Positions 525-52,678 are shown, counted from the first letter of the stretch. The stretch is 53,234 bases of DNA from Candidatus Saccharimonadota bacterium (GCA_016187175.1 JACPKG010000016.1:1-53234), one strand, 5' to 3'. Translations and numbers: made by a program. The notes: a model not told the origin generated them from the sequence alone.

Positions 525-983
525 ATGTCTATTATTAACTGTAGGCTTAAGTTAATGTTTTATGTTTTTTTGGCCATTAGTTTGATATTTATCTTTAGCT
601 TGGTTTTTAAGAACCTGTCAAAAAAGCCTTTTTGTTCTCTTTGTGTAGCAGTCGCATCTACTTGGCTGGCCCTGCTGGTTTTATATAAAATCGGCCGTTT
701 TGGCAACCAAGTCCTGCTTGGGCTGCTGGTCGGCCAAAGTACAACTGGTATTTTTTACCTTGCCTATCGGCGTCTGCCCCAAGCCCTGCGTATTTTTAGC
801 TTGCCTTTTTTCTTGTCGCTGACAGCTATCTTCTACGGTCTAATTACAGGCGAAATCCAGCTGTCAGTTTTTATTCTGCTGGTAGTTTTATGGACCTCAG
901 CTTGGGTAGTTTTTACATATCGCAGTGATCCCGGCAAGAAAAAAATCGCTACGATCTTAGCTGAATGCTGCGAGGATAAATGA
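525..983 (+). CDS. small polytopic membrane protein with a CSLC (CxxC) motif and a C-terminal ECCEDK tail
   Basis: Track ORF 171-983 trimmed to ATG 525 (alternative ATG 555), because codons 1-118 are antisense to the ArsR-like gene. Several hydrophobic helices. No family recognised. Confidence 0.5.
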   Translation: MSIINCRLKLMFYVFLAISLIFIFSLVFKNLSKKPFCSLCVAVASTWLALLVLYKIGRFGNQVLLGLLVGQSTTGIFYLAYRRLPQALRIFSLPFFLSLTAIFYGLITGEIQLSVFILLVVLWTSAWVVFTYRSDPGKKKIATILAECCEDK

Positions 984-1025
984 TGATGAATTTTCCCAAG
1001 CCAAGGGTGAGGTTCTAACGGGATG
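980..1025 (+). promoter_or_regulatory. truncated copy (C) of the leader module: mini-uORF MMMNFPKPRVRF-stop, CGGG, then the ATG of ccdA-like
   Basis: AAGCCAAGGGTGAGGTTCTAACGGGATG matches the 3' ends of the elements at 12585-12709 and 24043-24172. The mini-ORF (980/986..1018) overlaps the TGA of the upstream gene and ends 4 nt before ATG 1023. Confidence 0.5.
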
Positions 1026-1898
1026 GAGTTAGTGACCGCCGCATCGTTACTGACCGCCTTCATCGCTGGTATGGCAGCGCTGTTTGCGCCTTGTTGCATA
1101 GGGGTATTGCTGCCGGCCTATTTGGCTTCGATCTTTAAGACCAAGACTAAAATTTTCTTGATGACCTTTGTCTACTTCCTTGGCCTGCTGAGCATCTTTT
1201 TGCCACTGGGACTGGGTGTAGCTAGTCTAGGCAGTTTCTTTAACGATAATCACGGTTTGTTTTTCGCGATTGGCGGCGCTTTTATGCTGCTACTTGGTTT
1301 CTCCATGATACTTGGTAAATCTATTATGCTGCCGATCCATGTTCACCCAAGATTACAAAAATATGATTTTGGTTCGATTTATGTGCTGGGTTTGTTTTCC
1401 GGTGTCGCCACTACTTGTTGCGCACCGGTACTGGCTGGCGTGTTAGCCTTGTCGGTTTTGCCTGGCTCAATCTGGCTTGGCGGTCTGTACGCTCTTACAT
1501 TTGTCGTTGGGATGGTAGTGCCATTATTTATCATGGCCGCTCTGTTAGACCGCAGCCAGGTTCTTGATAAGTTTCGTTCACTTAAGCGCACTGTTAGCTA
1601 TCATCTGCTTGGCCGCCAGATCAAAACCAGCCTGTCGCATTTGATTGCTGGTTCAATATTTACTGTTTTTGGTCTATTTATCCTGATTTACGAACGAGCG
1701 AATCCTGATGTCTTCAGCGCTGGCTATCAGCTAGATATTAATCTATTAGCCGCTCGTATTACCCGATATATTAGCCGCGAGGCGCAGGCGCTACCTGAAT
1801 TTGTGTGGGCGCTATTATTCATGGCTATATTTGCAGCCATTGCTTATGCGGCCTATAGGCAGGCTAAAGCCGAAAAAGTCGAGGACGAGGATCTATGA
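1023..1898 (+). CDS. ccdA: CcdA/DsbD-family transmembrane thiol:disulfide electron transporter
   Basis: 291 aa polytopic protein with two membrane-embedded Cys pairs (LFAPCCIGVLLP and TTCCAPVLAGV), typical of the cytochrome c biogenesis CcdA/DsbD_2 family. Confidence 0.8.
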   Translation: MELVTAASLLTAFIAGMAALFAPCCIGVLLPAYLASIFKTKTKIFLMTFVYFLGLLSIFLPLGLGVASLGSFFNDNHGLFFAIGGAFMLLLGFSMILGKSIMLPIHVHPRLQKYDFGSIYVLGLFSGVATTCCAPVLAGVLALSVLPGSIWLGGLYALTFVVGMVVPLFIMAALLDRSQVLDKFRSLKRTVSYHLLGRQIKTSLSHLIAGSIFTVFGLFILIYERANPDVFSAGYQLDINLLAARITRYISREAQALPEFVWALLFMAIFAAIAYAAYRQAKAEKVEDEDL

Positions 1899-2478: not shown

Positions 2479-3108
2479 ATGCGGATACGGACTAAACTAT
2501 CAAAAGTCGTAAAATCGGGCCGGTTTGTGATCGGTCTTAGTTTTATAGTCGGGGCTTTAGTAATTCTTGGTATAAGGTTCGTGACCTACCATCCTCCTGA
2601 CGAGGTTCACTATCATGCCAACTTCGCTGTATATTTTAATGGCCAAAGAGAGTTATTCAAGGACATTTTTTATTACATTGGTACCGAAGGGGCCTGTAGT
2701 CTTGAGCCAAAGATGACGCCCCACCAAAGAGCCCATATGCACGACAACGTTAATGACGTAGTGCACGTCGAAGACCAGGCGGTAACATGGGGAGTGTTTT
2801 TTCAAAATATTGGCTGGGTGGTTGATGCTACGCTAATCAAGACAGCCGATCAGATTCTGCTGGCGGACCCCCAAAATAAAATCACTTTTATGCTAAATGG
2901 TGAGCAGACGGATAAAATAGTTAATCGGGTAATTAAAGATCAGGATAGACTGCTAGTTGACTACGGCAGCACTTCTCCAGCAGATCTTCACAAGGAGTAC
3001 GAATCTGTCCCGACCACGGCCCGCCAATACAATATGCAGCAGGATCCTGCTAGCTGCAGCGGTCGCCGGCCAACAAACTTATCGGAACGATTCAAGCACT
3101 TGTTTTAA
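2479..3108 (+). CDS. membrane-anchored His-rich hypothetical protein
   Basis: 209 aa ORF starting 2 nt after the redoxin stop. One N-terminal TM helix and several His residues (VHYHANF, HQRAHMHDN). No family recognised. Confidence 0.55.
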   Translation: MRIRTKLSKVVKSGRFVIGLSFIVGALVILGIRFVTYHPPDEVHYHANFAVYFNGQRELFKDIFYYIGTEGACSLEPKMTPHQRAHMHDNVNDVVHVEDQAVTWGVFFQNIGWVVDATLIKTADQILLADPQNKITFMLNGEQTDKIVNRVIKDQDRLLVDYGSTSPADLHKEYESVPTTARQYNMQQDPASCSGRRPTNLSERFKHLF

Positions 3109-3119
3109 TGATTTTTCTC

Positions 3120-3292
3120 TAAGAGCTAATCCACATCTCTCTATCGGCCAAAACCGAAGATCGCCCACTTTCAATCCGTTTTTCCCTCGTCAGCGTACCA
3201 CTTTAGGTACGCTTCCTCACGAGAAAACAGATTAAAAATCATGGGCCCTGCTTCAATTTTGCCTATAACAGTGAGATGTGGATTAGCTCTTA
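3120..3292. mobile_element. MITE-like element: perfect 20-bp terminal inverted repeats flanking about 133 bp
   Basis: TAAGAGCTAATCCACATCTC (3120-3139) is the exact reverse complement of GAGATGTGGATTAGCTCTTA (3273-3292). No ORF inside. The right arm contains the last codons and the stop of the P-type ATPase. Confidence 0.45.
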
Positions 3293-5787
3293 AACTTATG
3301 ATGCAGCTTATGAATTTCCACGGCCAGCAAAACCGTGAGAATTACAAAAATTGATCCAACTAGTAAATGGTCAAAGCCAACACTTGCAACGCCAAAAACT
3401 TCTTTTAGTGGTCCGAACATAACCAGTGACTGCAACAGCGCTGCCATAAAAAGCCCAAACAAAAGTTTATAGTTCATAACTTGCCCGCCGCGGATAGCAG
3501 AATGCTGTTCGGATCTGGCGTTAAAAGCATTAGTCCACTGGCTGACAACCAGCATAAAAAAAGCTATGGTCTGGGCATACTCCAACGAGTAGCCCGATTG
3601 GATCAAAAAGTCAAAGACTATAAGGATTGGAATTGACATAGCCGCGCCCACAATGACAATCCGGCTTAAAATAACTCTGTCTAAAATAGGCGCTCTTGGC
3701 CGGCGCGGCGGTCGTTTCATATGGTCGTCCTCAGCCGGTTCCAGGCCAAGGGGGATAACTAAAGCGGTGTCGGTAACAAGATTGACCCACAAAATCATAA
3801 TGGCAGTAACAGGCAGGGGTAGTCCTATAAGCAACGCTCCAATCATCGTCAAAATCTCGCCGAGGCTGGTGGCAAGAAGATAAAACATCATCCGCCTGAT
3901 GTTGTCATAAATTATTCTGCCCTCGCTGATAGCTTGGACAATCGAAGCAAAGCTACTGTCTAGCAAGATCATGTCGCCGGCGTCTTTGGCAATGTCGTTG
4001 CCCGAGCCCATGGCAATCCCTACATGAGCATTAGTTAAGGCAGGCACATCATTTACACCGTCTCCTGTCATAGCGGTTATCTCAGACCGTTTAAGTGCCC
4101 TGAGAATATTAAATTTCTGCTGTGGCAAAATCCTCGCGAAAACGGACTTGGTCTTTAGCACAGTTTCTAATTGCTCCTCAGTTTCGGGCAAATCGCTGCC
4201 CATTATCACCTGATCGCGGTGAGTACTTATGCCAAGATTTTTGCCTACATGAAAAGCTGTTTCAAAGTGGTCACCGGTAATCATCCTTACGGAAATACCG
4301 GCGCTTTTGGCGGCTGCAATCGCGGCAGCGGACTCCGGCCGCAGCTCATCGGCAAAAGCTACAAAGCCGGCAAACTGCAACGGTAGATCTTTAAGGCCTG
4401 CCAGCTTGTCAGCGGCATGATCAACCTTCGCCCAAGCTACAGCAATTACCCGCTGTCCATTAGCTACCATGTGATGCAATCTGCTTTCGGCTTGATGACG
4501 GGTCTCGTCATCAAGCTGGCAAAGGTTAAGTAAATGTTCCGGCGCGCCTTTGACATATAAAACTTTAGCGTCAGCTTCCTGCCACAGCGCGCCGCTCATA
4601 CGTAGAGCTTGGTCAAAAGGGTAGTTCTTAATAAGCTTTCCATTATACATATGGTCACCGGCGAATTTCTGCAGCGCACGGTCGAACGGCTCAGTTACGT
4701 TAGCTGGTTGGCCAAGCGTTTTAAGAGCAATCCTTTTTAAATCAATGCGCGGATCAGCCGGCCAGTTATCGGCAACTGCTAAACTGTTTTTAGTCAGTGT
4801 TCCGGTTTTATCGGTGGCTATAGCTGTGATTAGACCAAGATCCTCAATGGTGCGCATTGAACGGACCAGGGCGTTTTTGCGGGCCATTCGGCGTATGCCT
4901 AGCACCGCGACCACAGACAAGGCAATTGGCAGATCTTCTGGCACGGCCGAAACACTCATAGCCAGCACGAACCGTAGTGCCTCATTAGCAGGAACGTCAC
5001 GCAACAAACTCAAAGTAAAGACTACCGCCGCTACTACTCCCAAGACTTTTATCAACCGACCGACCAATGTATCGATCTTCTGCTGCATCGGGCTTTTGGG
5101 CTCAGCTTGAACCGCCAATTTGGCAATGGCACCAAACTCAGTTGCCGAGCCGGTGGCTATTACCATCGCACGTCCGTTGCCAGCTGCAATGTATGTACCT
5201 GAAAAAAGCATGTTTTCCCGTTCGTAAAGTGGCTTGTCTGCCGAAATTGTGGAAACGACTTTTTTAACAGGTAATGATTCGCCAGTTAGTACTGCTTCAT
5301 CAGCCAAGAGATTTTCTTCGTGGATAACTCGGGCGTCGGCGGGGACGCGCTGACCTTCAAATAGTAAAACGATATCTCCCGGCACCAACAGGTTCGCAGC
5401 CACAGTTGTGCTGCGTCCATCGCGTAGGACCTGTACATATTGCTGGGCGTGCTTTTTTAAGCTTTTTAGTACGCGGTTGGTGGCTTGTTGCTGGGTATAA
5501 TAAATGGCTATATTAACTGCAATGATGGCGCTAATAACAATTCCATCTAGGGATTTATGGCTTAAGAAACTTATGGCTGTCGCCAAAACCAGGATTATCA
5601 CAAAGAGGCTGGCAAAGGGCTCGATAATTTTACGCCAAAGCGGCTGGCCGTCAGCTTCAAGCTCGTTGAAACCATATTGATTGAGCCGTAGGTTAGCCTC
5701 GGTGGTGCTAAGACCATGTTGACCCGAATTCAGCGAGGCATAGAGTTCTTCCAAATTTAAAGAGTGCCATACCTGCATTACAGACAT
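3283..5787 (-). CDS. cation-transporting P-type ATPase (P2-type, Ca2+/Mg2+-like)
   Basis: 834 aa with TGES, DKTGTLT phosphorylation site, KGAPE, MITGD and TGDGVNDVPAL hinge, plus N-terminal cation-ATPase and C-terminal TM bundles. Confidence 0.9.
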   Translation of the reverse strand: MSVMQVWHSLNLEELYASLNSGQHGLSTTEANLRLNQYGFNELEADGQPLWRKIIEPFASLFVIILVLATAISFLSHKSLDGIVISAIIAVNIAIYYTQQQATNRVLKSLKKHAQQYVQVLRDGRSTTVAANLLVPGDIVLLFEGQRVPADARVIHEENLLADEAVLTGESLPVKKVVSTISADKPLYERENMLFSGTYIAAGNGRAMVIATGSATEFGAIAKLAVQAEPKSPMQQKIDTLVGRLIKVLGVVAAVVFTLSLLRDVPANEALRFVLAMSVSAVPEDLPIALSVVAVLGIRRMARKNALVRSMRTIEDLGLITAIATDKTGTLTKNSLAVADNWPADPRIDLKRIALKTLGQPANVTEPFDRALQKFAGDHMYNGKLIKNYPFDQALRMSGALWQEADAKVLYVKGAPEHLLNLCQLDDETRHQAESRLHHMVANGQRVIAVAWAKVDHAADKLAGLKDLPLQFAGFVAFADELRPESAAAIAAAKSAGISVRMITGDHFETAFHVGKNLGISTHRDQVIMGSDLPETEEQLETVLKTKSVFARILPQQKFNILRALKRSEITAMTGDGVNDVPALTNAHVGIAMGSGNDIAKDAGDMILLDSSFASIVQAISEGRIIYDNIRRMMFYLLATSLGEILTMIGALLIGLPLPVTAIMILWVNLVTDTALVIPLGLEPAEDDHMKRPPRRPRAPILDRVILSRIVIVGAAMSIPILIVFDFLIQSGYSLEYAQTIAFFMLVVSQWTNAFNARSEQHSAIRGGQVMNYKLLFGLFMAALLQSLVMFGPLKEVFGVASVGFDHLLVGSIFVILTVLLAVEIHKLHHKFKS

Positions 5788-6522: not shown

Positions 6523-6810
6523 AGCTGGAAGCCTGTGACCCATCCTCCGTTGAGACTACGGAGGGCAAGAATTCAGGCACTGTGCCGCAACGGTAAGAAA
6601 ATGAGAAACCCCGTCGGGGTCTCTCATCGCACCGGTCCGCGAAAGCGGAGACGAATTTAGTTCGTCAGGTCCGATGAGAAAAACGTAGTTTGTCTCATAT
6701 TTAAGTCCGATACAGCTTTACAATCCGCCAGCTGGCGGACTCCCGAGCAGGAGTACTAAGTACTTAACAAGTTAAGTATTTTCAACCCCTGCTCCACACA
6801 GGGGTTTTTT
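6523..6810 (+). ncRNA. candidate structured RNA of unknown class (independent ncRNA or long 5' leader of the 6811 gene)
   Basis: No ORF of 60 aa or more. Dense hairpins: CCTCCGT/ACGGAGG; ATGAGA..CCCC-GTC-GGGG..TCTCAT; CCGC-GAAA-GCGG; GACGAA/TTCGTC; a second ATGAGA/TCTCAT; TCCGCCAGCTGGCGGA; ACTCC/GGAGT. Repeated GGTCCG and GTCCGAT boxes. Ends in a strong intrinsic terminator. Strand is inferred only from the terminator. Confidence 0.3.
6786..6810 (+). terminator. rho-independent terminator
   Basis: CCCCTG-ctccaca-CAGGGG followed by TTTTTT. The T-tract abuts ATG 6811. Confidence 0.75.
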
Positions 6811-12584: not shown

Positions 12585-12709
12585 TATAGTACGGATGAAT
12601 CCCGTTAGACCTCAGCCTGCAACTTTCACACTAACTTTGCGTTGGATCTGCTTTAAATTGCCAACGATCAACAATTTTTATAAGCCAAGGCTGAGGTTCT
12701 AACGGGATG
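12585..12709 (+). promoter_or_regulatory. leader module copy A: -10 box, near-leaderless 35-codon uORF, and a long-range helix sequestering the SD and AUG of the downstream gene
   Basis: TATAGT at 12585-12590. 12599-12617 (ATCCCGTTAGACCTCAGCC) pairs with 12689-12708 (GGCTGAGGTTCTAACGGGAT, one bulge). The uORF stop at 12700-12702 lies 4 nt before ATG 12707. Confidence 0.6.
12595..12702 (+). CDS. leader peptide MNPVRPQPATFTLTLRWICFKLPTINNFYKPRLRF
   Basis: Same 35-codon length as the copy at 24058-24165. Shares MNPVRPQPA, R..CFKL (with synonymous codon differences) and PRLRF-stop. Confidence 0.5.
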   Translation: MNPVRPQPATFTLTLRWICFKLPTINNFYKPRLRF

Positions 12710-13714
12710 AAAACCATAGGCATATTACTTTTAGCGGTGGTACTGGCCAAGTGTATCTTGCTTTATAAAGCTTCCAAAGCTCTACCGCTGGCTGAACTTC
12801 GCCGACGGGCAAGGGGTGGTGGCGATAAACACACCCAAGCTCTTTATAAAGTATTAGCTTTTCAGTCTTCATTAAAATTTATTATTTGGACGGTCGGAGT
12901 AACTTCTGCCACGATGCTTGTTTTGCTGGCAGCTGATTTTTCTGGCTGGCTAGTTTTAGTATTTATAGCCGCCACCAGCTGGTTGCTTTTAGACGAGCGG
13001 TTTTCTATCCGGACCGGGAACTGGCTGTGGGAAGTTTCGGCCCTTGTGGCCTCGGTGGTTTTGCCAGTTGTCAATTTTTTGCAGCCGGTACTCGTGCGCC
13101 TCGGCGGCCATGTTAGGGGTTTAGAGCGTGGTCATACAGGTATTTACGAGGTTGAAGATTTAATGGATTTTATCGACCGCCAAAGCAGGCAACTGGATAA
13201 CCGTCTTTCGGCCGCTCAACTCCAAAGCGTTCGTAGCGCTCTGAAATTTGCTGACCAAAATATCGGTAGTGTAATGACGCCGCGCAAATCGGTAAAGTGG
13301 GTGGCGGCCAACGAACCTATCGGTCCGACGTTAATGGACGACTTACACAAAACAGGTCATAAGCGTTTTCCAGTTGTGACCGATACCGTTTCTGTTAAGT
13401 CGACAGCACCAAAAATCGTCGGCACGCTTTACCTACGCGATCTTTTAAAAAACCTGGAAAAGCCGGGCACCGCCCAAGATATTATGAAAAAAGACGCCCA
13501 CTTTATTAATGAGTCAAATAGTTTGCGCCAGGCACTGGACGGCTTTGTAAAGTCAGGCCAACATCTGTTGATCGTGGTTAACAACTTTGAGGAAGTAGTA
13601 GGAGTTTTAACTTTAGAAGATGTGCTGGAACAAATATTGGGAGAAAAAATTGCTGATGAATTTGAAAGTTACGATGATTTACGAGCTGTCGCCGGCCACG
13701 AAGCCAAAAAATAA
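12707..13714 (+). CDS. CNNM/CorC-family protein (DUF21 transmembrane domain plus CBS pair), putative Mg2+/Co2+ transport mediator
   Basis: 335 aa with 3-4 N-terminal TM helices, then a tandem CBS region (VMTPRKSVKWV ... HLLIVVNNFEEVVGVLTLEDVLEQILGE). No CorC_HlyC C-terminal domain. Confidence 0.8.
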   Translation: MKTIGILLLAVVLAKCILLYKASKALPLAELRRRARGGGDKHTQALYKVLAFQSSLKFIIWTVGVTSATMLVLLAADFSGWLVLVFIAATSWLLLDERFSIRTGNWLWEVSALVASVVLPVVNFLQPVLVRLGGHVRGLERGHTGIYEVEDLMDFIDRQSRQLDNRLSAAQLQSVRSALKFADQNIGSVMTPRKSVKWVAANEPIGPTLMDDLHKTGHKRFPVVTDTVSVKSTAPKIVGTLYLRDLLKNLEKPGTAQDIMKKDAHFINESNSLRQALDGFVKSGQHLLIVVNNFEEVVGVLTLEDVLEQILGEKIADEFESYDDLRAVAGHEAKK

Positions 13715-14530: not shown

Positions 14531-15844
14531 ATGGATAGGATTTTAAGCCGTGATGTGGCGGGTCATGCTGGGAAAAAAGCCACGTTGCAGGGCTGGCTGC
14601 ATAAGAAGCGATTGCTGGGCAGGCTAAACTTTATTTTGCTACGCGACCGCAGTGGCGTGACGCAAATAGTGGTTGAAGACGAGGCCGAAATTAAGAAGCT
14701 TCACGGCCTCCACATTGGTACGGTATTGGTAGTTAGTGGTACTGTTGTTGCCGAAAAGCGGGCTCCGGGTGGAGCTGAAATCCGCGACCCAAAAATCACA
14801 GTCGCAGTACCCGTAACTGACGAACCACCGATTGAAATTGATAAGCCCCTTAGTCACAAATCAGCCAATCTAGACACTCTTTTTGATAACCGCGTTATCG
14901 GCCTACGAAACTTGCGCGAACAAGCTATTTTTAAAGTTCAAGCGGCGGTTAAAGAGGCCATCCGCCAGTACTTGTTTAGCCAGGACTTCGTTGAGTTTAA
15001 CTCGCCCAAACTTTTACCAGGAGCGACGGAAGGCGGGGCAGATGTCTTTAAGCTCGATTATTTTGGTAAAGAAGCTACGCTGGCCCAAAGCGCCCAGTTT
15101 TATAAACAAATCATGGTTGGTGTTTACGAGCGGGCCTTCGAAATCAACCCAACTTACCGCGCCGAGCCTTCGGCTACTACCCGCCACATGACGGAATTCA
15201 TAACAATAGACGTAGAAATGGGCTTTATTGACTTTAATGAATTACTTGACTTGTTAAGTAATTTGCTTAATGTCGTTGTTGACAACGTATGGAAAAATAA
15301 AGCCCAAGAACTCAAACTGTGGGAAGCTAAAAGACCCGTCTTGCCAGCCACAATTCCGACTATGACTATGGCTGAGATCCATGAAAGATACTCCAAAGAT
15401 ACCGGCGAAAATTCGGTAGGCGAAAAAGACCTGCGACCTGACGAGGAGCGCTGGATTTGTGAATACACCGCCAAAAATTTGAAGTCCCAAGCAGTATTTG
15501 TGACGCAGTGGCCGGCCAGCGAAGCCAAATTCTATCACAAGCTTTATGATGATAAGCCGAAGCTGGCGGAACGTTTTGACCTGCTCTTTCGCGGAGTGGA
15601 AATTGCCACCGGCAGCCTGCGCGAACACCGCTACGATAAATTGGTCAAGCAGCTCAAAGACAAAACCGGTAGCGGGCCCGATGCGCCCGGATTCAAATAT
15701 TTCCTGCAAGCGTTTAGGTACGGCATGCCGCCACACGGTGGCTTCGGCATGGGCCTGGAACGCCTAACCGAAAAGATTATTGGCCTTTCAAATGTTAAGG
15801 AAGCAACATTATTCCCAAGGGATATCAACCGCTTGACTCCATAG
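14531..15844 (+). CDS. aspS: aspartate--tRNA ligase, archaeal/eukaryal-type (short, probably non-discriminating)
   Basis: OB-fold N-terminus (ATLQGWLHKKRLLGRLNFILLRDRSGVTQIVV) and class II motifs (FEINPTYRAEPS; GGFGMGLERL). About 437 aa from MDRILS. Confidence 0.9.
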   Translation: MDRILSRDVAGHAGKKATLQGWLHKKRLLGRLNFILLRDRSGVTQIVVEDEAEIKKLHGLHIGTVLVVSGTVVAEKRAPGGAEIRDPKITVAVPVTDEPPIEIDKPLSHKSANLDTLFDNRVIGLRNLREQAIFKVQAAVKEAIRQYLFSQDFVEFNSPKLLPGATEGGADVFKLDYFGKEATLAQSAQFYKQIMVGVYERAFEINPTYRAEPSATTRHMTEFITIDVEMGFIDFNELLDLLSNLLNVVVDNVWKNKAQELKLWEAKRPVLPATIPTMTMAEIHERYSKDTGENSVGEKDLRPDEERWICEYTAKNLKSQAVFVTQWPASEAKFYHKLYDDKPKLAERFDLLFRGVEIATGSLREHRYDKLVKQLKDKTGSGPDAPGFKYFLQAFRYGMPPHGGFGMGLERLTEKIIGLSNVKEATLFPRDINRLTP

Positions 15845-17298: not shown

Positions 17299-17936
17299 GG
17301 GTTTTGGTTTTTGGTGCTAGTACGACTCAAGGCTATTGGGACACAGAAGGCGGTTGGGTAACTCGCCTGCGTCGCTATTATGATGAGAAACAGGTTAAAT
17401 TACAGGCTGCCGGAAATGTTAATGAAGGCCAACCGGCAATTTTTAATTTAGGTATTTCCGCGGATATGTCATCCGATGTGCTTAAGCGCTTTGAGCCCGA
17501 AACAGTTGCTCGCCAGCGTGGCGAACTAGCTTTTATTTTTTGTGTCGGCGGTAATGATAGCGCAATAGAAAATTCCAAACCTCGGGCGACAACTGAGGAC
17601 TATAAGTCGAATATAGAGACCTTAATAAAAAAAGCCCGCCAATTTTCAGACAAAATAATGGTTATTGGTCTAAATCCAGTTGATGAGACGCGCACTACAC
17701 CTGTTTTTTGGGCCGATGTCCATTACACGAATGAGGGGATGAAAAGCAATAATAATACTCTTATGGAAGTTTGTAAGAAAGAAAATATCCCATATGTTTC
17801 CATTTTTGAAGATATGGAAAAACGCTTTAAAGCTGGCGAAGAAATGTTTGTTGATGGTTTACATCCAAACAACGAAGGTCACGAGCTGATATTCCAATTG
17901 GTACAGCCTGCCCTAGATCAGCTTCTAAATACTTAA
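17295..17936 (+). CDS. SGNH/GDSL-family hydrolase
   Basis: Block I VFGASTTQG, block III GGND, block V DGLHPN. GTG start overlaps the upstream stop. Confidence 0.8.
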   Translation: MRVLVFGASTTQGYWDTEGGWVTRLRRYYDEKQVKLQAAGNVNEGQPAIFNLGISADMSSDVLKRFEPETVARQRGELAFIFCVGGNDSAIENSKPRATTEDYKSNIETLIKKARQFSDKIMVIGLNPVDETRTTPVFWADVHYTNEGMKSNNNTLMEVCKKENIPYVSIFEDMEKRFKAGEEMFVDGLHPNNEGHELIFQLVQPALDQLLNT

Positions 17937-17949
17937 CCTGTTAAGTATT
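17928..17949. repeat. AT-rich palindrome AATACTTAA-cctg-TTAAGTATT
   Basis: 9-bp stem overlapping the stop of the SGNH gene. Related copies at 6761-6778 and 19870-19893 share TAAATACTTAAC. Confidence 0.55.
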
Positions 17950-18050
17950 CTCGGCTGAGAAAGATTTATGAAAACAAGGCGTACAATGTAACATCAGCTT
18001 GTTAGCGTTGCTTACAAAAGCATATAATCTTAATGGAAAAGGTGGTATTA

Positions 18051-19871
18051 ATGTCGAATAAAAACTCTTTGGTTGACGAGAATAAAACACCCGAGCCAGC
18101 CAGACAGCTGCCGGAAATAGAGGCAGACTTACCTCTGCCATCGCCGCCGGCCGGACCGCCGCCCCCAAAACCGGCTGCCAAAAAACCGCCACCGGCTGGT
18201 TCTCGATGGCAACGTTTGCGCGACTGGTATAGTGCGCATAAAAAACTATCTATTCCGCTGAGCGTTCTAATCTTGCTGCTGATTATTTTGGCTATTCCGG
18301 CCAGCCGCTACGGTGTTGCCGGGCTGGCCCTTAAAAAGAACTTTGTAATTGCAGTAAAAGACGCTACGACTAACGCGCCAGTCAGTGGCGCTTTGGTTAG
18401 CGCCGGCAGTATTAGTGACCAAACCGACGGCAGCGGCAAGGCTACATTGAAGCTTAAACCCGGCAACCGTACAGTTACGGTCTCGAAAAAGTACTATCGG
18501 GAAGAAACCACAAAAGTGATGGTGCCGTTATTGCAATCTAAGAGCACACCGGAAATCAAACTCCAAGCCACTGGCAGGCAAGTCCAAATCAGTGTTAAAA
18601 ATTCCATAACCAAAAAGGCGCTACCCGAAGTAAATATCAAAGTTGCAGACATTGACGCCAAGACCGACAAGGACGGCAGTGCCTTAATAGTTCTGCCGGC
18701 CGGGTCTGCTTCGCAAAAGGCGGCACTATCCTTAAGCGGCTATAACGACACCGATGTAACAGTTAAAGTTAGCGATGCCAAGGTCGAGGAAAACGAATTT
18801 ACACTTGCACCAACGGGTAAAATCTACTTTTTATCCAAGCTCAGCGGCAAGATTGATGTAGTTAAGTCAAACCTGGACGGCACTGGACGTGAAACTGTTC
18901 TAGCTGGTACCGGCCGCGAAGACAGCCAAAACACCGTATTACTGGCCAACCGTGACTGGAAGTACCTGGCGTTGCTATCACGCCGCGACAGCGACCTAGC
19001 GAAGTTGTATCTCATAGAAACAGGCAACGATAAAATTACTGCCATTGACGAAGGCAACGCCACATTTAATCCCCTTGGCTGGAGCGGCGCGTACTTTGTT
19101 TATCAAGTTGACCGGAAGGGTTATCAGCCATGGCAGCCTAAACAACACGTCTTAAAAAGTTATGATGTTGCCGCCAAAAAGACCAATTTATTAGATGAGA
19201 CAGGTGCGTCAGGCAGTTCGAGCAACGATGCAAAATACGAGTTCTATAGCAGCACTTACATTGTTGGGCAGCGGCTGGTATTTAGCAAAGCCTGGTACAT
19301 GGGTCCGGGCACTGAGGCTTCAGACGACAATCAACTTGGTATTTATAGCGTAAGCGCTACTGGCAATGGCGGCAAGGCCACTCATAAAACCTTCAGCTAC
19401 CAGGCCGATAAGTCAACTTATGAACAATCTTTTCTTAATAAGCCCGATCAAGTTTATTTTCAGGTTACAGAAAAAGACGGGGAAGCTAAATATTTTGTTT
19501 ACGCTAACAATCAGGTTAGTGAAAATCCTTCGGTCAAGGATGATTTCAATAACAATTTAAATAGCGGACAGTATATTACTTATTTGCTGTCACCGTCTGG
19601 TGGCTCGACATTTTGGAGTGAATCACGCGACGGCAAAAACAGCTTATTTATTGGTGATGGCGTTGGTGGTAACGCCAAGCAGATAGCAAAACTTTCTGAA
19701 TATGAAACATACGGTTGGTATACAGAAGACTATCTACTGGTTTCCAAAAATAGCAGCGAGCTTTACATTTTTGGAACTGAAGGCCTAAAAAAAGACGACG
19801 CAGCATTAAAAATCACAGATTATCATAAGCCTGATTTTTCTTACTATGGCGGTGGCTACGGAGGACTGTAA
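18051..19871 (+). CDS. large membrane-anchored surface protein (Pro-rich N-terminus, Ig/carboxypeptidase-regulatory-like repeats, beta-propeller-like C-terminal half)
   Basis: Start at ATG 18051, preceded by AAAGGTGG. PPAGPPPPKPAAKKPPPAG, one TM helix, then beta-rich repeats. No enzymatic motif. Confidence 0.7.
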   Translation: MSNKNSLVDENKTPEPARQLPEIEADLPLPSPPAGPPPPKPAAKKPPPAGSRWQRLRDWYSAHKKLSIPLSVLILLLIILAIPASRYGVAGLALKKNFVIAVKDATTNAPVSGALVSAGSISDQTDGSGKATLKLKPGNRTVTVSKKYYREETTKVMVPLLQSKSTPEIKLQATGRQVQISVKNSITKKALPEVNIKVADIDAKTDKDGSALIVLPAGSASQKAALSLSGYNDTDVTVKVSDAKVEENEFTLAPTGKIYFLSKLSGKIDVVKSNLDGTGRETVLAGTGREDSQNTVLLANRDWKYLALLSRRDSDLAKLYLIETGNDKITAIDEGNATFNPLGWSGAYFVYQVDRKGYQPWQPKQHVLKSYDVAAKKTNLLDETGASGSSSNDAKYEFYSSTYIVGQRLVFSKAWYMGPGTEASDDNQLGIYSVSATGNGGKATHKTFSYQADKSTYEQSFLNKPDQVYFQVTEKDGEAKYFVYANNQVSENPSVKDDFNNNLNSGQYITYLLSPSGGSTFWSESRDGKNSLFIGDGVGGNAKQIAKLSEYETYGWYTEDYLLVSKNSSELYIFGTEGLKKDDAALKITDYHKPDFSYYGGGYGGL

Positions 19872-19893
19872 ATACTTAACTAGTCAAGTATTT
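19870..19893. repeat. AT-rich palindrome AAATACTT-aactagtc-AAGTATTT
   Basis: Starts within the stop codon of the 18051 gene. Same family as 17928-17949. Confidence 0.5.
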
Positions 19894-19936
19894 ACAAATT
19901 AATTGAAGCTAACCACAATGGTTCATCGTGAGTTAC

Positions 19937-23757: not shown

Positions 23758-23955
23758 ATGGCTTATAAGCATACAAACAGTAAAGGTGTTACATACTACT
23801 TGAACTCTAAGCAAGTCACACTTCGAGGTGGTAAAACTCAAACTATCTATTATTTTTCCAAGGACGAGCGCAGAGATACTGGAACGGATCTGCCATCTGA
23901 CCGCGCAGTCAACGAAAACCCCCGCAATGGTTTTCTTACGCTAAAGCGTAAATAA
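23758..23955 (+). CDS. small basic protein (65 aa)
   Basis: Strong SD, own promoter and own terminator. MAYKHTNSKGVTYYLNSKQVTLRGGKTQTIYYFSKDE. No family named with confidence. Confidence 0.6.
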   Translation: MAYKHTNSKGVTYYLNSKQVTLRGGKTQTIYYFSKDERRDTGTDLPSDRAVNENPRNGFLTLKRK

Positions 23956-23976
23956 TCCGGACAAAGTACACGTTAA

Positions 23977-24005
23977 GAACATCCGCCAGAGGCGGATGTT
24001 CTTTT
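23977..24005 (+). terminator. rho-independent terminator
   Basis: GAACATCCGCC-aga-GGCGGATGTTC followed by TTTT. Confidence 0.8.
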
Positions 24006-24042
24006 ATAGGTTTCTCTCCTCTTAAAACGGGAGTCCCTGGTT

Positions 24043-24172
24043 TATAATTTAGCCAGGATGAATCCCGTTAGACCTCAGCCTGCAATTTCCAAACCCAATT
24101 GGCGTGGGAGTTGTTTTAAACTTCAATCGTTTACTTTTGATCGTCAGCCAAGGTTGAGGTTCTAACGGGATG
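24043..24172 (+). promoter_or_regulatory. leader module copy B upstream of murJ
   Basis: TATAAT at 24043-24048. 24062-24080 (ATCCCGTTAGACCTCAGCC) pairs with 24152-24171 (GGTTGAGGTTCTAACGGGAT, one G-U and one bulge). The uORF stop at 24163-24165 lies 4 nt before ATG 24170. Confidence 0.6.
24058..24165 (+). CDS. leader peptide MNPVRPQPAISKPNWRGSCFKLQSFTFDRQPRLRF
   Basis: 35 codons, parallel to 12595-12702. Confidence 0.5.
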   Translation: MNPVRPQPAISKPNWRGSCFKLQSFTFDRQPRLRF

Positions 24173-25753
24173 AATCGATGGCTTAACCGCGCCAACCAAC
24201 GAATATCTCTTACCGGTGCCGCGGTACTGCTGGTGGTGGCTGCTTTGGTCGGCCAGATGCTGGGTTTTTTACGCACCCAGATCATTAATGGTAACTTTAA
24301 CAGCCCCGGCCATATCACAACTGATGCCTACTTTGCCGCTTTTAAAATTCCTGACTTCTTTTTTTATACCATTGCTGCTGGTGCGTTGGGCGTGGCCTTT
24401 ATGCCGTTTTTGGCTGATAAGCTGGCCGCCGGTGATAAAAAATCCGTTTGGCATTTAACCTCGGGCTTACTTAATCTGCTAGGCCTTTTGATGGTGGGTG
24501 TTGCCATTATCTTGCTTATTTTTACTGAACCCCTGCTAAAAATAGTGGTCGGTAATAACCTGAGTCCAGACCAGATGCACGATGCGGTGACAATCATGCG
24601 AATTGTGGCTCTAAACCCCTTGATCTTCACTATTTCCGGAATTCTTACCAGTTTGCAGCAAACTTTTGGCCGTTTCTTTTTCTTCGCCCTAGCGCCAATT
24701 CTTTATAACGGCTGCATTATTGCCAGCGTCTACATTTTTAAGGACAGTCTAGGTCTGGTTGGCTTGGGTATAGGCGCGCTGGCTGGCGCAGTGCTGCAAC
24801 TGCTGTTTGTCCTGTTGGGACTGGTTGGACTAAACTTCCGCTATATCCCTACTTTTCACTGGCGCAGTCCAGACTTTAGACGTATCTTAAAGCAGCTGCC
24901 GCCGCGTTCAATTGACCAGGGCATTGACTCTATCAACTCGATTGTTGAAACTAACCGCGCCAGCACTCTGGGCCGGGGATTTATTACCTTTTACGAAAAC
25001 GCTTATACTTTGCACCTCGTGCCGATTATGTTAATAGGAACTACTATAGCCACGGCTGCCTTTCCGCGCCTAAACGAACGTTTGGCCCAAGGCCGCCCCG
25101 ACTTATTTAGGCGTGACTTTTTGATGGTGCTACGGGCGATGATCTGGATAATTGCGCCGATAGCTGTAATTTCTTTCTTTGGTCGGGCCTACTTTGCCCG
25201 TTTGATATACAAGAATATAGCGCCGGAAATCGCTATTATCCTTGGCTTTTTGGTAGGGGCAATTGTTTTTAGAACACTTTACGCTATTATTTCCCGCTAT
25301 TTTTATGCCCAAAAAGACACTAAGACGCCGCTGTTTGTCTCCTTGTTCGTGATAGCCCTTAATATATTTCTGGCCTTTCAGCTGGTTAAAATCTACGGCG
25401 TGACCGGCCTGGCGCTGGCGCAGTCAATCGTTGCGGCTGTCGAAGTCTTTATTTTGCTTTTGATTATGGTTTGGCGTGATAAGTTGGTCATCACTGTTGA
25501 TTTTTGGAGCGGTCTTATGCGTACGCTTTCGGTCACCGGTTTTACCATTATTACTACTTACACGCTGGTATCGTTAATTCCGCTGGAGGCTACTGACCGT
25601 GGTTTTATAACATTAAGTTCCAAACTCCTGGCTATTATTTTGCCAACATTTATCGTTCACCTGTCCGTTTCATCGCTGTTTGGTTTAGAGGAAGTCCAGC
25701 CAGTTACCAAAAAGTTGAAACAACTTGCCCTCAAACCCATCAAAATCCAGTAG
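24170..25753 (+). CDS. murJ: lipid II flippase MurJ/MviN
   Basis: 527 aa, about 14 TM helices, MOP-superfamily pattern (LGFLRTQIINGNF...DAYFAAFKIPDFFF). Confidence 0.85.
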   Translation: MNRWLNRANQRISLTGAAVLLVVAALVGQMLGFLRTQIINGNFNSPGHITTDAYFAAFKIPDFFFYTIAAGALGVAFMPFLADKLAAGDKKSVWHLTSGLLNLLGLLMVGVAIILLIFTEPLLKIVVGNNLSPDQMHDAVTIMRIVALNPLIFTISGILTSLQQTFGRFFFFALAPILYNGCIIASVYIFKDSLGLVGLGIGALAGAVLQLLFVLLGLVGLNFRYIPTFHWRSPDFRRILKQLPPRSIDQGIDSINSIVETNRASTLGRGFITFYENAYTLHLVPIMLIGTTIATAAFPRLNERLAQGRPDLFRRDFLMVLRAMIWIIAPIAVISFFGRAYFARLIYKNIAPEIAIILGFLVGAIVFRTLYAIISRYFYAQKDTKTPLFVSLFVIALNIFLAFQLVKIYGVTGLALAQSIVAAVEVFILLLIMVWRDKLVITVDFWSGLMRTLSVTGFTIITTYTLVSLIPLEATDRGFITLSSKLLAIILPTFIVHLSVSSLFGLEEVQPVTKKLKQLALKPIKIQ

Positions 25754-41618: not shown

Positions 41619-41695
41619 ATGGAGGGCCCAGTGGGATTCGAACCCACGACACGCGGCTTAAAAGGCCGCTGCTCTGACCAGCTGAGCTATGGGCC
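41619..41695 (-). tRNA. tRNA-Lys (anticodon TTT), CCA encoded
   Basis: Hand-folded from the reverse complement: GGGCCCA-TA-GCTC-AGCTGGTCA-GAGC-A-GCGGC-CTTTTAA-GCCGC-GTGTC-GTGGG-TTCGAAT-CCCAC-TGGGCCC-T-CCA. 77 nt. Confidence 0.9.
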
Positions 41696-41884
41696 CGCAG
41701 CGCCCCGACACTGTCGGGGCGCTAATGGCGCTAATAATTCGGCTCCGGAGCTGAATTAACCCCTGATATTATCCTTTTTTTGACTAAAAAAATCAACGAG
41801 TTCATCAACTCCCTGGTTTGTATCTCGGTGACTTAAAAAACGCAAGCAATTAACTTCTTGTCTCTCATATGCCATTATGGCGAA

Positions 41885-44870: not shown

Positions 44871-45518
44871 ATGCGCTTGTTTTTATCATCACAAGACTTT
44901 GGCAACTATCCGGAAGTGGCGGCTAAGTTGGCTGGGAAGAATAAAAAAGCAGCTTATATTAAGAATGCTCAAGATGACTTACCGCCAAAAGAAAGAAATT
45001 TTAGTACGCCGGAAAAGAAAAAAATGTTTGAAGCAGCAGGTTTTGAATTTGAGGAGCTGGACCTACGTGATTATTTTGGGGAGCCGGATAAATTACTTAA
45101 CAAGTTAGGTAATTTTGGGTCTTTTTGGTCTTCGGGTGGTAATACTTTTATTTTGCGTCGGGCGATGAAAGCCAGTGGCCTGGATGAGGTCTTTCAAAAA
45201 TTACTGAAAGAAGACAAGATAATGTACGGCGGTTGGAGCGCCGGGGCGTGCGTAGCAGCTCCTTCGCTGCACGGCATCGAATATGGCGACAGACCTCAGC
45301 CAAATGTAGTACCTAAGAATTACCCAATCAAAGATACGATTTGGGAGGGCCTTAATTTAGTACCTTTCATGGTTGTCCCGCATTATAAGTCAGACTGGTT
45401 TGGTGCCGAGGCCGATAGGTCACTAACATACTTTAAAAGACACAAAATACCGTGTAGGCCGTTACAGGACGGCCAGGTTATCGTCGTGAGCGACAGGAAA
45501 GTTGAGTTTTTAAAGTGA
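44871..45518 (+). CDS. peptidase S51 (dipeptidase E-like)
   Basis: SSGGNTFILRRAM and GWSAGACVAAP (nucleophile Ser) motifs. Confidence 0.75.
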   Translation: MRLFLSSQDFGNYPEVAAKLAGKNKKAAYIKNAQDDLPPKERNFSTPEKKKMFEAAGFEFEELDLRDYFGEPDKLLNKLGNFGSFWSSGGNTFILRRAMKASGLDEVFQKLLKEDKIMYGGWSAGACVAAPSLHGIEYGDRPQPNVVPKNYPIKDTIWEGLNLVPFMVVPHYKSDWFGAEADRSLTYFKRHKIPCRPLQDGQVIVVSDRKVEFLK

Positions 45519-50330: not shown

Positions 50331-52031
50331 ATGAGCTCTAGCTTTCCCAAGTCTAAATGCTTTGTTTATCTTAGACGCTCACAAGACCGAGAGGATAGAC
50401 AGGCGTATTCGCTTGAAAAACAAGATCAGCAAGTTCGGCAAATCATTACAGATAATAACTATGTAGCTATCCATTTACCGCCAGAAGAAAGGTCGGCCAG
50501 GTACTTAGGTCGTCCGATATTCAATGATATGTTAGAACGCATCGAAAAAGGCGAAGCTAGATATATAGCCGTGTGGCAACTTAGCCGATTAAGCCGCAAT
50601 CCCATAGATGCAGGTAGGATCATCTACATGCTAGACCAAGGTTCTTTATTAGCTATACATACACCCACTAGAACCTACCGCAACACCCCAGATGATAAGG
50701 CATTCTTAGCTATAGAACTTGCGTTTGCTAAAAAGAATAATGATGACCTGAGCGTCCAAGTGAAAGAAAGTTTTGAGCAAAAGCGCAATCATGGTGAATA
50801 TCCTGGTCCTGCACCGCTCGGGTATTACAACGCTATTATAAGTCCAGGCCATCGTAACATAGTGCCTCATCAAGAAAACGCACAAAAAATTATTAGGCTT
50901 TTTCAAAAAGCTGCCAGCGAATGCTATACACTTCACGATATTTGGCTTGAGACAGAAAAGCTAGGTTTGCGGTCCAAAAATGGCTTGCCTCTAGCGAAAC
51001 AAACTGTGGTTGGCATTTTGAAAAACAGAGTTTATACAGGCGTTTTTAAGTATGGTAGCCCCGAGTATCATCAAGGAGCATATGAGCCCCTGATTAGTAT
51101 TGAGATTTATAATAAAGTGCAACAAGTTATGGGCTGGGCGCATAAGCGTAATGTACCCCATACCACAGCAGGACGATCATATCCTTATAAGGGCCTACTG
51201 CTTTGTGGCACATGCAATTTCAACATAACAGCCTATACTAAGCCAAAAACCCTATCCAATGGCTCAGAAGCATATTATGAGTTTTATACCTGCACCAAAA
51301 AGAGCAAGACAGTTAAGTGCACTGAGTCTCAGATCTCTGCTAAAGAATTGGAAGAAGCGATCAAGTCCAAAATGTCAGAGTTCGAAATAAGTGAAGAAGA
51401 CGGTAAGACTTGCCTGCGGTTAATTGAGGGGCTTTTTGACAGCCACATAAAAAATCAGCAACGATACCGTGAAATATGGGAAAAAGACCGTAGAGACGCA
51501 AAAAAAGCACTTGAGGTGCTTGATGAAAAGCTTGAAACAGGCGTTATCGAAGATGAAAGATATAAGAGCCGTAGTAATCGCCATCGGGCGGTGCTGGCTA
51601 GAACTACGCAACTGCTTGAAAGTTCTTATCAAGACGCCGAACGCTGGCTAGAACTAGCAACGGAGGTATTTTCAAGTGTTACTAACCTAGGTGTAGTCTT
51701 TGAACAAGCTGAGGATACAGAACGGCGTGAACTTATGAAGTATTTAGGTTTGAACTGGACTTTAAGTGATAGAAAAGTGGCTCTAACACCTAGAGAACCA
51801 CTACATTTGTTACATATCAGCAATCGAAATCAATCTTGGCGGGGCGGGCAGGATTCGAACCTGCGGCCAATCGGTTATGAGCCGACTGCTCTAACCACTG
51901 AGCTACCGCCCCTCGTCGTCCGCCTAGGCGGACTCCTCTTCAATTTTACAAGTTCTGCTACGCACGACCTTGTAAAATTGGTAAAAGAACAGTATAAACC
52001 CAAGTATAACAGATGTATGAGATATAATTAG
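50331..52031 (+). CDS. large serine recombinase (resolvase domain, recombinase domain, zinc ribbon, coiled coil); the 3' end of the ORF runs antisense through tRNA-Met
   Basis: CFVYLRRSQDREDRQAYSLEKQ (catalytic Ser region), IAVWQLSRLSRN, YPGPAPLGY, and the Cys cluster CGTCNFNI...YTCTKKSKTVKC. No stop until 52031, although recognisable recombinase sequence ends near 51830. Confidence 0.8.
   Translation: MSSSFPKSKCFVYLRRSQDREDRQAYSLEKQDQQVRQIITDNNYVAIHLPPEERSARYLGRPIFNDMLERIEKGEARYIAVWQLSRLSRNPIDAGRIIYMLDQGSLLAIHTPTRTYRNTPDDKAFLAIELAFAKKNNDDLSVQVKESFEQKRNHGEYPGPAPLGYYNAIISPGHRNIVPHQENAQKIIRLFQKAASECYTLHDIWLETEKLGLRSKNGLPLAKQTVVGILKNRVYTGVFKYGSPEYHQGAYEPLISIEIYNKVQQVMGWAHKRNVPHTTAGRSYPYKGLLLCGTCNFNITAYTKPKTLSNGSEAYYEFYTCTKKSKTVKCTESQISAKELEEAIKSKMSEFEISEEDGKTCLRLIEGLFDSHIKNQQRYREIWEKDRRDAKKALEVLDEKLETGVIEDERYKSRSNRHRAVLARTTQLLESSYQDAERWLELATEVFSSVTNLGVVFEQAEDTERRELMKYLGLNWTLSDRKVALTPREPLHLLHISNRNQSWRGGQDSNLRPIGYEPTALTTELPPLVVRLGGLLFNFTSSATHDLVKLVKEQYKPKYNRCMRYN
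51837..51912 (-). tRNA. tRNA with CAT anticodon (elongator Met or Ile2), CCA encoded
   Basis: Hand-folded from the reverse complement: GGGGCGG-TA-GCTC-AGTGGTTA-GAGC-A-GTCGG-CTCATAA-CCGAT-TGGCC-GCAGG-TTCGAAT-CCTGC-CCGCCCC-G-CCA. 76 nt. Confidence 0.85.
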
Positions 52032-52603: not shown

Positions 52604-52678
52604 CGCGGGGTGGAGCAGTAGTAGCTCGCGTGGCTCATAACCACGAGGTCGCAGGTGCAAATCCTGCCCCCGCTACCA
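52604..52678 (+). tRNA. initiator tRNA-fMet (CAT), CCA encoded, atypical T-loop
   Basis: CGCGGGG-TG-GAGC-AGTAGTA-GCTC-G-CGTGG-CTCATAA-CCACG-AGGTC-GCAGG-TGCAAAT-CCTGC-CCCCGCT-A-CCA. 1:72 mismatch and close to E. coli tRNAfMet as I recall it. The T-loop reads TGC instead of the usual TTC. Confidence 0.8.

Follow-up and report, generated by a model that had tools for sequence, protein, structure and literature searches.

A palindromic element at the murJ start codon of a Candidatus Saccharimonadota bacterium belongs to an apparently mobile insertion family

The element upstream of murJ

We analysed a 53,234-nt stretch of DNA from a Candidatus Saccharimonadota bacterium (GCA_016187175.1 JACPKG010000016.1:1-53234; hereafter, the window), in which a palindromic element lies between a -10 box and the gene for the lipid II flippase MurJ. 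An initial annotation, generated from the sequence of the window alone, had described this element as the second of two leader modules (copy B, with copy A located elsewhere in the window), in which an upstream open reading frame (uORF) and a long RNA helix would control murJ. The locus contains the following features.

23975-24003, plus strand: terminator-like hairpin with a 13-bp stem, an AGA loop and a T-rich tail (RNAfold, -21.1 kcal/mol)
24043-24048, plus strand: -10 box TATAAT, 9 nt upstream of the ATG at 24058
24058-24062, plus strand: ATGAA, the original murJ start codon and two bases, which now opens the through-reading frame
24058-24165, plus strand: through-reading uORF of 35 codons, encoding MNPVRPQPAISKPNWRGSCFKLQSFTFDRQPRLRF, with the stop codon TAA at 24163-24165
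24063-24080, plus strand: left terminal inverted repeat TCCCGTTAGACCTCAGCC, which includes ACCTC, resembling an anti-Shine-Dalgarno sequence, and recurs exactly at 12600-12614
24081-24151, plus strand: variable interior of subfamily 1, 67% identical to the orthologous copy in locus L003
24152-24170, plus strand: right terminal inverted repeat GGTTGAGGTTCTAACGGGA, with the Shine-Dalgarno (SD) sequence GAGG at 24156-24159 and the uORF stop TAA at 24163-24165
24170-25753, plus strand: murJ, lipid II flippase of 527 aa (Pfam PF03023, E = 6e-62)

The -10 box, the uORF and its stop codon 4 nt before the murJ ATG all lie where the initial annotation had placed them, and its assignment of the gene to murJ is borne out by the Pfam match. 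The two arms that it had proposed to pair do so: a 20-bp helix, interrupted by a single bulge, joins 24063-24080 to 24152-24170 and buries both GAGG 24156-24159 and the murJ ATG. The 136-nt region has a minimum free energy of -58 kcal/mol (z = -7.2), and none of 200 shuffled sequences folded as well. The terminator claimed upstream of murJ was likewise recovered, and this hairpin ends the small upstream ORF 23758-23955 and shields murJ from transcription coming from upstream. A simple terminator scanner missed the hairpin, probably because the stem extension consumes part of the T run. Because no SD sequence lies between TATAAT 24043 and ATG 24058, we predict a transcript that is leaderless or whose leader does not exceed 3 nt.

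The uORF stop is followed by CGGG and then by the murJ ATG at 24170. The right repeat carries stop codons in all three frames (TGA, TAA and A-TGA), and its terminal A is the A of the murJ ATG. TGAA is found at both edges of the element as the left (24059-24062) and right (24171-24174) copies of a target duplication, and the murJ start is rebuilt from the element's terminal A and the right copy. The ends of the element read TCCCGTTAGA(C)CTCAGCC and GGNTGAGGTTCTAACGGGA. Nearly all of the 3308 MurJ homologues have the N-terminus MN(R/K)WL. An ORF on the minus strand (24049-24318), for which the initial annotation had expected no support, is not conserved, being interrupted by stops in the murJ orthologues of L003, L024, L025, L026, L028, and L029 (L numbers designate loci fetched for comparison).

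No known class of regulatory RNA was recognized at this locus. Rfam 15 at gathering thresholds matched only tRNAs, and an E-value scan of 23950-24250 gave a best match of 17.5 bits, all matches being chance-level microRNA or small RNA models. There is no terminator/antiterminator alternative at the murJ leader, which has a single long helix with the ATG directly after it and no U-tract. The features of a leader-peptide attenuator are absent, in that the peptide is not conserved, there is no regulatory codon run and the interior is without covariation. A riboswitch-like core was considered and rejected, as RNAalifold on ten subfamily-1 copies yielded just one weakly compensatory pair; this alignment fold revealed no conserved structure or covariation in the interior 24081-24151.

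A dispersed family with hallmarks of insertion

Copies of the element were collected in two scans. A genome scan for exact matches to the right arm, with one genome per species, returned 23 loci, nearly all of them in metagenome-assembled genomes (MAGs) of Saccharibacteria, a group of Patescibacteria, with several copies per MAG and a maximum of four. A metagenome scan with the arm alone as the query, in which no TG was demanded after the arm, returned at least 120 loci. Among the metagenome matches listed, approximately 45 were true elements, whereas approximately 75 of 120 were chance 16-mers within coding genes (IEVLTG motif), apparently those of Lon- and GyrB-like proteins as judged from the translations, and were discarded. 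In viral contigs the short form was absent, and the arm of the long form described below had one chance match only. The pooled set comprised 52 unique copies; the reading-frame test used 49 unique short copies and the promoter test 55 upstream regions.

The 52 unique copies share a common plan, i.e., a -10-like hexamer, a spacer of 6-10 nt, xTGRR, the element itself (TCCCGTTAGA…interior…TCTAACGGGA), and then TGRR of the downstream gene. The 8-mer CTAACGGG was almost always, in the fetched loci, an element end adjoining an ATG start codon. Short copies measure 59-139 nt from start codon to start codon. The genes downstream are mutually unrelated, including frr, dnaG, murB, atpH, an Asp/Asn-tRNA synthetase gene, truB, pilB, pilM, zwf, rpmC, an rpmE-like gene, and genes for AAA proteins, in addition to murJ.

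The family has several properties of transposable elements of the miniature inverted-repeat type (MITEs). It is small, multi-copy (three copies in the 53-kb window) and dispersed, it has terminal inverted repeats, and it carries no transposase gene. The target duplication has a fixed length, with TGNN being the same at both ends in 49 of the 52 unique copies (ATGAA, ATGGA or ATGAG). This direct repeat is not explicable by base pairing: AUGRRU is merely quasi-palindromic, and pairing needs neither R4 = R4' nor R5 = R5'. A third strand (YYCAT) in the interiors was also considered, and none was seen by eye in four copies (copies A and B of the window, L021, and L022). Three copies combine a 5' GTG with a 3' ATG (L058, L068, and L147) and a C…G-terminated variant yields a GTG start (L002), indicating that the right repeat supplies the initial base of the rebuilt start codon and that the duplication is most likely 4 bp and less probably 5 bp. 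The extensions of the repeats covary across subfamilies (CCTCA/TGAGG, CTCCA/TGGAG, GCCAG/CTGGC, GCTAG/CTAGC, and TTACCTC/GAGGTAA).

Some copies appear young, as their interiors are 97% identical before non-homologous genes (L004/L042 and L002/L005), and precise presence/absence polymorphism was also found (next section). The 109-nt subfamily has copies in either direction with respect to the host gene, at approximately 80% identity to its reverse complement. A mini-element flanked by TTAA/TTAA is nested within another copy, and tandem elements share a junction. The reconstructed target logo holds information at ATGRR only, together with a weak AT-rich tract from -16 to -9. Two other known systems were considered and set aside. 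Integron attC sites (suggested by GTTRRRY in the arm) did not fit, since the core sites come in the opposite order and the copies are spread over housekeeping genes. A translational bypass like that of T4 gene 60 or byp did not fit either, since the match is only 5 nt and not in codons, and the uORF has its own stop.

Several loci hold composite tandem elements (L113 1054-1240, 5320-5400, and 10920-11000; L053 2045-2180), built from a short C…G-terminated variant (ATGA followed by CCCCGMTTAGAAGT…ACTTCTAACGGGG), then TCTA and a second element. The composite at L113 1054-1240, located between rplP and rpmC, has one open frame throughout on translation, and in P0234 the same composite is fused ahead of a GIY-YIG ORF. 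The same termini are present in a MAG labelled Omnitrophota (L002 2508-2711 and 4978-5090; L005 505-649), where two copies are tandem, one contains the nested TTAA-flanked mini-element and another is the GTG-start variant. These copies reflect either cross-phylum transfer or mis-binned contigs, and the same question applies to those labelled Binatia (L021) and Francisellaceae (L016).

Filled and empty sites in orthologous genes

Comparison of orthologous genes revealed sites with and without the element. The murJ orthologues of L024, L028, and L029 (77% identity; three lineages) have no element and no SD; their empty sites show TATACT or TATAAT, 9 nt, and ATGAAT(C/A)GATGG… with a single ATGAA, as in TATACT-N9-ATGAATCG. 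The initial annotation had read the element as a leader regulating murJ, a reading that did not survive this comparison of murJ upstream regions. The murJ site holds subfamily 1 in the window and in L003, a different subfamily (2) in L025 (85% identity), and degenerate versions of the element in L026 and L027.

The same pattern was found at other genes. The rpmE-like gene is empty in L010 (TATACT, 9 nt, ATGAAG) and has the same promoter plus the element in L015. The class II tRNA synthetase gene is filled in L001 and empty in the window (14531) and in L014, whereas the CBS-domain gene that follows copy A is filled in the window and L014 and empty in L001. The layout of the empty sites suggests that the host genes were leaderless before insertion.

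In line with this, TANNNT is over-represented at spacings of 6-10 nt before the 5' ATG, with 37 hits in the 55 upstream regions compared with 0-2 per position elsewhere, and no more than 12 of 52 copies have an SD-like motif ahead of this ATG. A minority of the targets are SD-led or overlap the stop codon of the upstream gene (L002, L113, L147, and L151). Elsewhere in the window, the gene starts at 2479, 5828, 14531, 36276, 40456, 44137, 46036, and 52035 have a -10-like hexamer 6-11 nt upstream and no SD, and those at 23758, 30624, 30997, and 37241 have strong SDs. With a -10-like hexamer and no SD at many window starts, a large fraction of the genes look leaderless. By comparison across genomes, these patterns are evidence for leaderless expression of many genes in these uncultured bacteria and for leaderless initiation being strong enough for essential genes.

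An open frame ending at the host start

The uORF frame contained no stops in 1093 interior codons of the 49 unique short copies, compared with 80 and 102 in the other two frames. It is open in all 49 copies, where shuffled sequences gave 12.9 expected and a maximum of 23. The uORF and the host gene are arranged as coupled ORFs, with a stop 4 nt before the host ATG in 29 of 52 copies and an ATGA overlap in another 19. In the former class the distance from ATG to ATG is 109, 112 or 139 nt and the stop is the TAA within the right repeat, while in the latter it is 83, 110 or 113 nt and the stop is a TGA that overlaps the host start as ATGA. The right repeat TGAGGTTCTAACGGGATGA holds one stop per frame, and the overlap frame is never used before host genes starting with ATGG. 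The sole copy seen as an in-frame fusion with its host gene is a 72-nt variant without SD in L010, an arrangement that is sensible only if the 5' ATG is a working start.

The sequence of the encoded peptide is not conserved. Between orthologous copies, 47 of the interior codon changes are nonsynonymous and 5 are synonymous, and 1-nt indels within a subfamily switch the C-terminal frame and never close it. The open frame is kept and the peptide is not. Together, these patterns support the uORF as a real, selectively maintained reading frame.

A long form encoding a GIY-YIG nuclease

Long relatives of the element encode a small nuclease. At L147 3012-3293, GTGAA is followed by TCCCGTTAGAGCC…GGCTCTAACGGG and ATGAA, with 278 nt between the start codons, and the through-reading ORF is a 93-aa GIY-YIG protein (PF01541, E = 1.6e-16). 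The long form is essentially one ORF, without a promoter, ribosome-binding site or start codon of its own, and uses the start of the host gene; it ends in ...CTAACGGGATGA, such that its stop overlaps the rebuilt host start. A total of 388 homologues were found in a public protein collection, most of them exactly 93 aa and running from M[NS]PVR… to …FLALTG*, which indicates that the inverted repeats are the first and last codons of the nuclease. Variants with PVT…(D/G)VTG termini parallel the TTACC/GGTAA variant of the repeats, and the catalytic residues Y, Y, G, R, H, and E are invariant in the long relatives. Further cassettes sit at start codons with an ATGA overlap, i.e., at folD (L150) and an rfbD-like gene (L151-L154), with more in L147 and L006.

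The closest solved structures to the 93-aa protein are the UPF0213 proteins 1zg2 (E = 4e-8) and 1ywl. Proteins of this class are bacterial Slx1-family minimal GIY-YIG domains, a family regarded as repair enzymes with largely vertical inheritance (PMC1564403). Divergent small GIY-YIG genes were seen in the same loci (L011 7142-7384, L081 1166-1387, L150 2055-2291, and L155 5212-5772), and those of L011 and L081, whose ends were read, have no inverted-repeat termini. These additional genes indicate that a stand-alone nuclease family is abundant beyond the cassette form.

A start-codon insertion and how it may be tolerated

The inverted repeats, target duplication, filled and empty sites, and both orientations argue for a mobile insertion and not for an evolved sensor. 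Sequence comparison shows the murJ element to be one member of a palindromic insertion family that sits on start codons and is mobile or was so until recently. We consider it probable that 24059-24170 is a MITE-like, non-autonomous miniature of a start-codon-parasitic nuclease cassette, and that the insertion is tolerated because translation of the uORF hands ribosomes over to the host start.

Under this reading, murJ would originally have been leaderless, as it still appears to be in sister lineages. Transcription from TATAAT 24043 would start 0-3 nt before ATG 24058. Ribosomes would then initiate on the 5'-terminal AUG, translate 35 codons, unzip the 20-bp helix over the SD GAGG and ATG 24170, terminate at the TAA of 24163-24165, and start again on murJ 4 nt further downstream. 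This would make the insertion 'translationally transparent', with the output of murJ tied to its original promoter and start. The inverted repeats would be needed for mobility, presumably as the substrate of the nuclease, with the RNA helix being a by-product that enforces coupling. The miniature form would have lost the nuclease while its frame is still open, and short copies would be mobilised by the GIY-YIG cassette. The cassette could owe its restriction to start codons to the lack of a start codon of its own, and that of the short copies could reflect selection in very compact genomes.

This reading retains part of what the initial annotation had proposed. The open, probably translated frame and the sequestration of the SD and ATG hold for the leader-peptide and helix module, whereas a dedicated flippase regulator does not, since the same cassette lies before unrelated genes. 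The suggested dependence of murJ on the element also stands: since a terminator and a -10 box precede murJ, translation of the gene very probably relies on traversal of the element.

Several points weigh against the miniature-cassette reading. We infer the transcription start site, leaderless initiation and re-initiation from sequence, and likewise the mobilisation of either form by the 93-aa protein. A GIY-YIG gene was not found anywhere in the window and the 35-aa murJ uORF is without a domain; the short and long forms have only 10-11-nt termini and the insertion architecture in common, not their interiors. To our knowledge, no GIY-YIG nuclease acts as a transposase or performs strand transfer. 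All copies found of subfamily 1, the 112-nt subfamily of the window, face the same way, and no open frame runs through its reverse strand. The start-codon pattern may result from selection rather than targeting. The orthologous pair L021/L022 has ATGAG/ATGAG versus ATGAA/ATGAA, which needs independent insertions or concerted change. Finally, the interior of copy A is 92% identical to its L014 orthologue while the adjacent protein is 63% identical, which hints at a host-level function for some copies.

A bolder version, which we put forward only tentatively and regard as somewhat less likely to be right than wrong, holds that these elements form a hitherto undescribed class of selfish 'start-codon parasites'. 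The autonomous form of approximately 280 bp would use its 93-aa Slx1-like nuclease as the mobility enzyme, with the murJ copy being among the MITE derivatives. Such a cassette would be expressed only after landing on a working start codon and would return the ribosomes via the ATGA overlap or the 4-nt gap, and its nuclease would perhaps cut a cruciform or hairpin of the repeats. If true, the start-codon parasite would be the smallest autonomous mobile element known, with the first GIY-YIG nuclease of the structure-specific type to serve as a mobility enzyme.

Alternative explanations

One alternative, to which we assign a low probability, is a host regulatory leader, possibly exapted, in which the helix and uORF adjust translation of murJ and of further housekeeping or envelope genes according to temperature, growth state or the supply of ribosomes. 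The purpose of such a leader would then be to couple the main ORF to leaderless initiation, and the coupling would not be a side effect. The strong conservation of the arms and of the SD/ATG sequestration, selection for openness of the uORF, the position of all three window copies before membrane proteins and the copy A/L014 comparison (interior 92%, downstream protein 63%) are what such a leader would lead one to expect. However, the downstream genes are functionally unrelated, orthologous genes including murJ manage without the element, and different subfamilies occupy the same site. The interior has neither covariation nor a conserved pocket and no Rfam match, and the element occurs in both orientations and as 97% identical copies at unrelated loci.

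About equally improbable is an ordinary MITE mobilised in trans by a DDE transposase, with the GIY-YIG version having captured, or been built around, a small nuclease gene. Elements moved by DDE transposition are characterised by terminal inverted repeats and a target duplication of fixed length, the nested copy is flanked by TTAA, and the fact that no GIY-YIG enzyme is generally known for strand transfer also favours this explanation. In approximately 1.2 Mb of fetched loci, however, a search for distant repeat pairs, which was noisy, gave no candidate and no transposase gene flanked by these termini. The N- and C-termini of the nuclease are the repeats in the 388 homologues, which indicates a stable unit and not an accidental capture. 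The CCC-starting ends and 4-bp duplication may resemble those of IS1380/piggyBac-like elements.

That the 35-codon ORF yields a small protein with a function, or a leader or arrest peptide with a sequence that matters, is very improbable: the ORF is always open and the N-terminus M(N/D/S)PVR is conserved, but conservation is confined to precisely the residues that the inverted repeats encode, the interior changes are 47 nonsynonymous versus 5 synonymous in orthologous copies, 1-nt indels swap the C-terminal half (…RF* for …EVLTG*) and there is no regulatory codon run.

With a mobile insertion as the preferred reading, 'leaders' of this type in Saccharibacteria and other members of the Candidate Phyla Radiation should be annotated as mobile insertions rather than as regulators of single genes, with the gene start at the second ATG. 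The rebuilt start, open frame, three-frame stops and SD would together permit near-harmless occupancy of the most sensitive position of a gene, a translational analogue of intron and intein splicing. Expression of essential genes such as murJ, murB, dnaG, and frr would come to hinge on a uORF. Should the 93-aa GIY-YIG protein prove to be the mobility enzyme, it would represent a transposition or homing mechanism that is new and extremely compact, and provide a function for part of the enigmatic bacterial Slx1/UPF0213 family.

Other copies and repeats in the window

Two further copies of the element are present in the window.

12595-12711, plus strand: copy A, subfamily 1; ATGAA, element, ATGAA, with the uORF at 12595-12702
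890-1027, plus strand: copy C, a fossil; ATGGA then CCTCAGC, with the 10-nt core TCCCGTTAGA deleted and a longer interior

Copy A precedes the gene of a CBS-domain membrane protein (12707-13714). The 22-nt 5' arm of the murJ copy is found again exactly at 12593-12614 (0 expected), and an alignment of copy A with copy B over 119 nt shows 77% identity, in agreement with the shared architecture described initially. The orthologue of copy A in L014 has an interior that is 92% identical, and the L001 orthologue of the CBS gene is without the element. Copy C has kept its whole right repeat (1006-1023), after which comes the ATGGA of a DsbD_TM/CcdA-like gene (1023-1898), and all three window copies sit before membrane-protein genes. 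A 270-aa ORF without a Pfam match (171-983) runs through the 5' half of copy C, and the C-terminus of its product may be derived from part of the decayed element.

Other repeats were also observed. A 28-nt palindromic motif with the core TACTTAAC-NN-GTTAAGTA occurs five times (6756-6783, 15238-15265, 17925-17952, 19868-19895, and 45089-45116), with some copies at gene ends or in intergenic spacers and two within predicted ORFs; an operator or a further family of small repeats would be possible identities. An inverted repeat at 3120-3142 and 3270-3292 (23-nt arms, 96% complementary, 127 nt apart) lies between the convergent ORFs 2479-3108 (plus strand) and 3283-5787 (minus strand), and may represent a bidirectional terminator, a small RNA or a palindromic element of another kind. 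The Rfam scan identified the following tRNA genes, the last two of which produce a long inverted-repeat pair that is therefore not a separate feature.

41623-41696: tRNA gene
51840-51912, minus strand: tRNA gene
52604-52675, plus strand: tRNA gene

Comparison with known systems

In the part of the literature covered by our search, we found no description of the element or of a mobile role for this branch of nucleases. The Correia/CREE elements of Neisseria, ERIC, and RUP are multi-copy elements of approximately 100-150 bp with no transposase gene, terminal inverted repeats, and a target duplication. Like the family described here, they occupy sites that are filled in one strain and empty in another, and fold into long hairpins when they are part of an mRNA. 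Unlike these elements, which use TA or short targets anywhere intergenic, the Saccharibacteria family is found essentially only at start codons, its terminal base rebuilds the start codon, a frame runs through it with three-frame stops by the rebuilt ATG, and its long relatives encode a GIY-YIG nuclease and not a DDE transposase. The Rickettsia palindromic elements similarly consist of a palindromic repeat in translated sequence that is read through to give an incidental peptide, but they lie in frame within ORFs and become part of the protein, whereas the Saccharibacteria element forms a separate upstream ORF.

The long form resembles the T4 seg genes in its location between or before host genes and its use of host expression signals, and shares the GIY-YIG catalytic domain with UPF0213 (YhbQ-like, 1zg2, 1ywl) and the I-TevI lineage. 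Homing endonucleases, however, have a separate DNA-binding domain, no flanking inverted repeats and only cognate alleles as targets, while the long form is a 93-aa domain-only protein whose cassette is found at many unrelated genes, with miniature derivatives. The stop near the next start, and the helix over the SD and AUG that is opened by a translating ribosome, follow the logic of translationally coupled ORF pairs and erm-type leaders. Unlike the latter, there are no stalling codons, no sensing of antibiotics or amino acids and no alternative hairpins, the uORF begins at a leaderless 5' AUG, and the module is a repeated insertion and not locus-specific. As a kind, the element belongs with MITEs and selfish nuclease genes; what is unusual is its confinement to start codons, the rebuilding of the start by its terminal base, the translational hand-over and the use of its repeats as the first and last codons of the nuclease.

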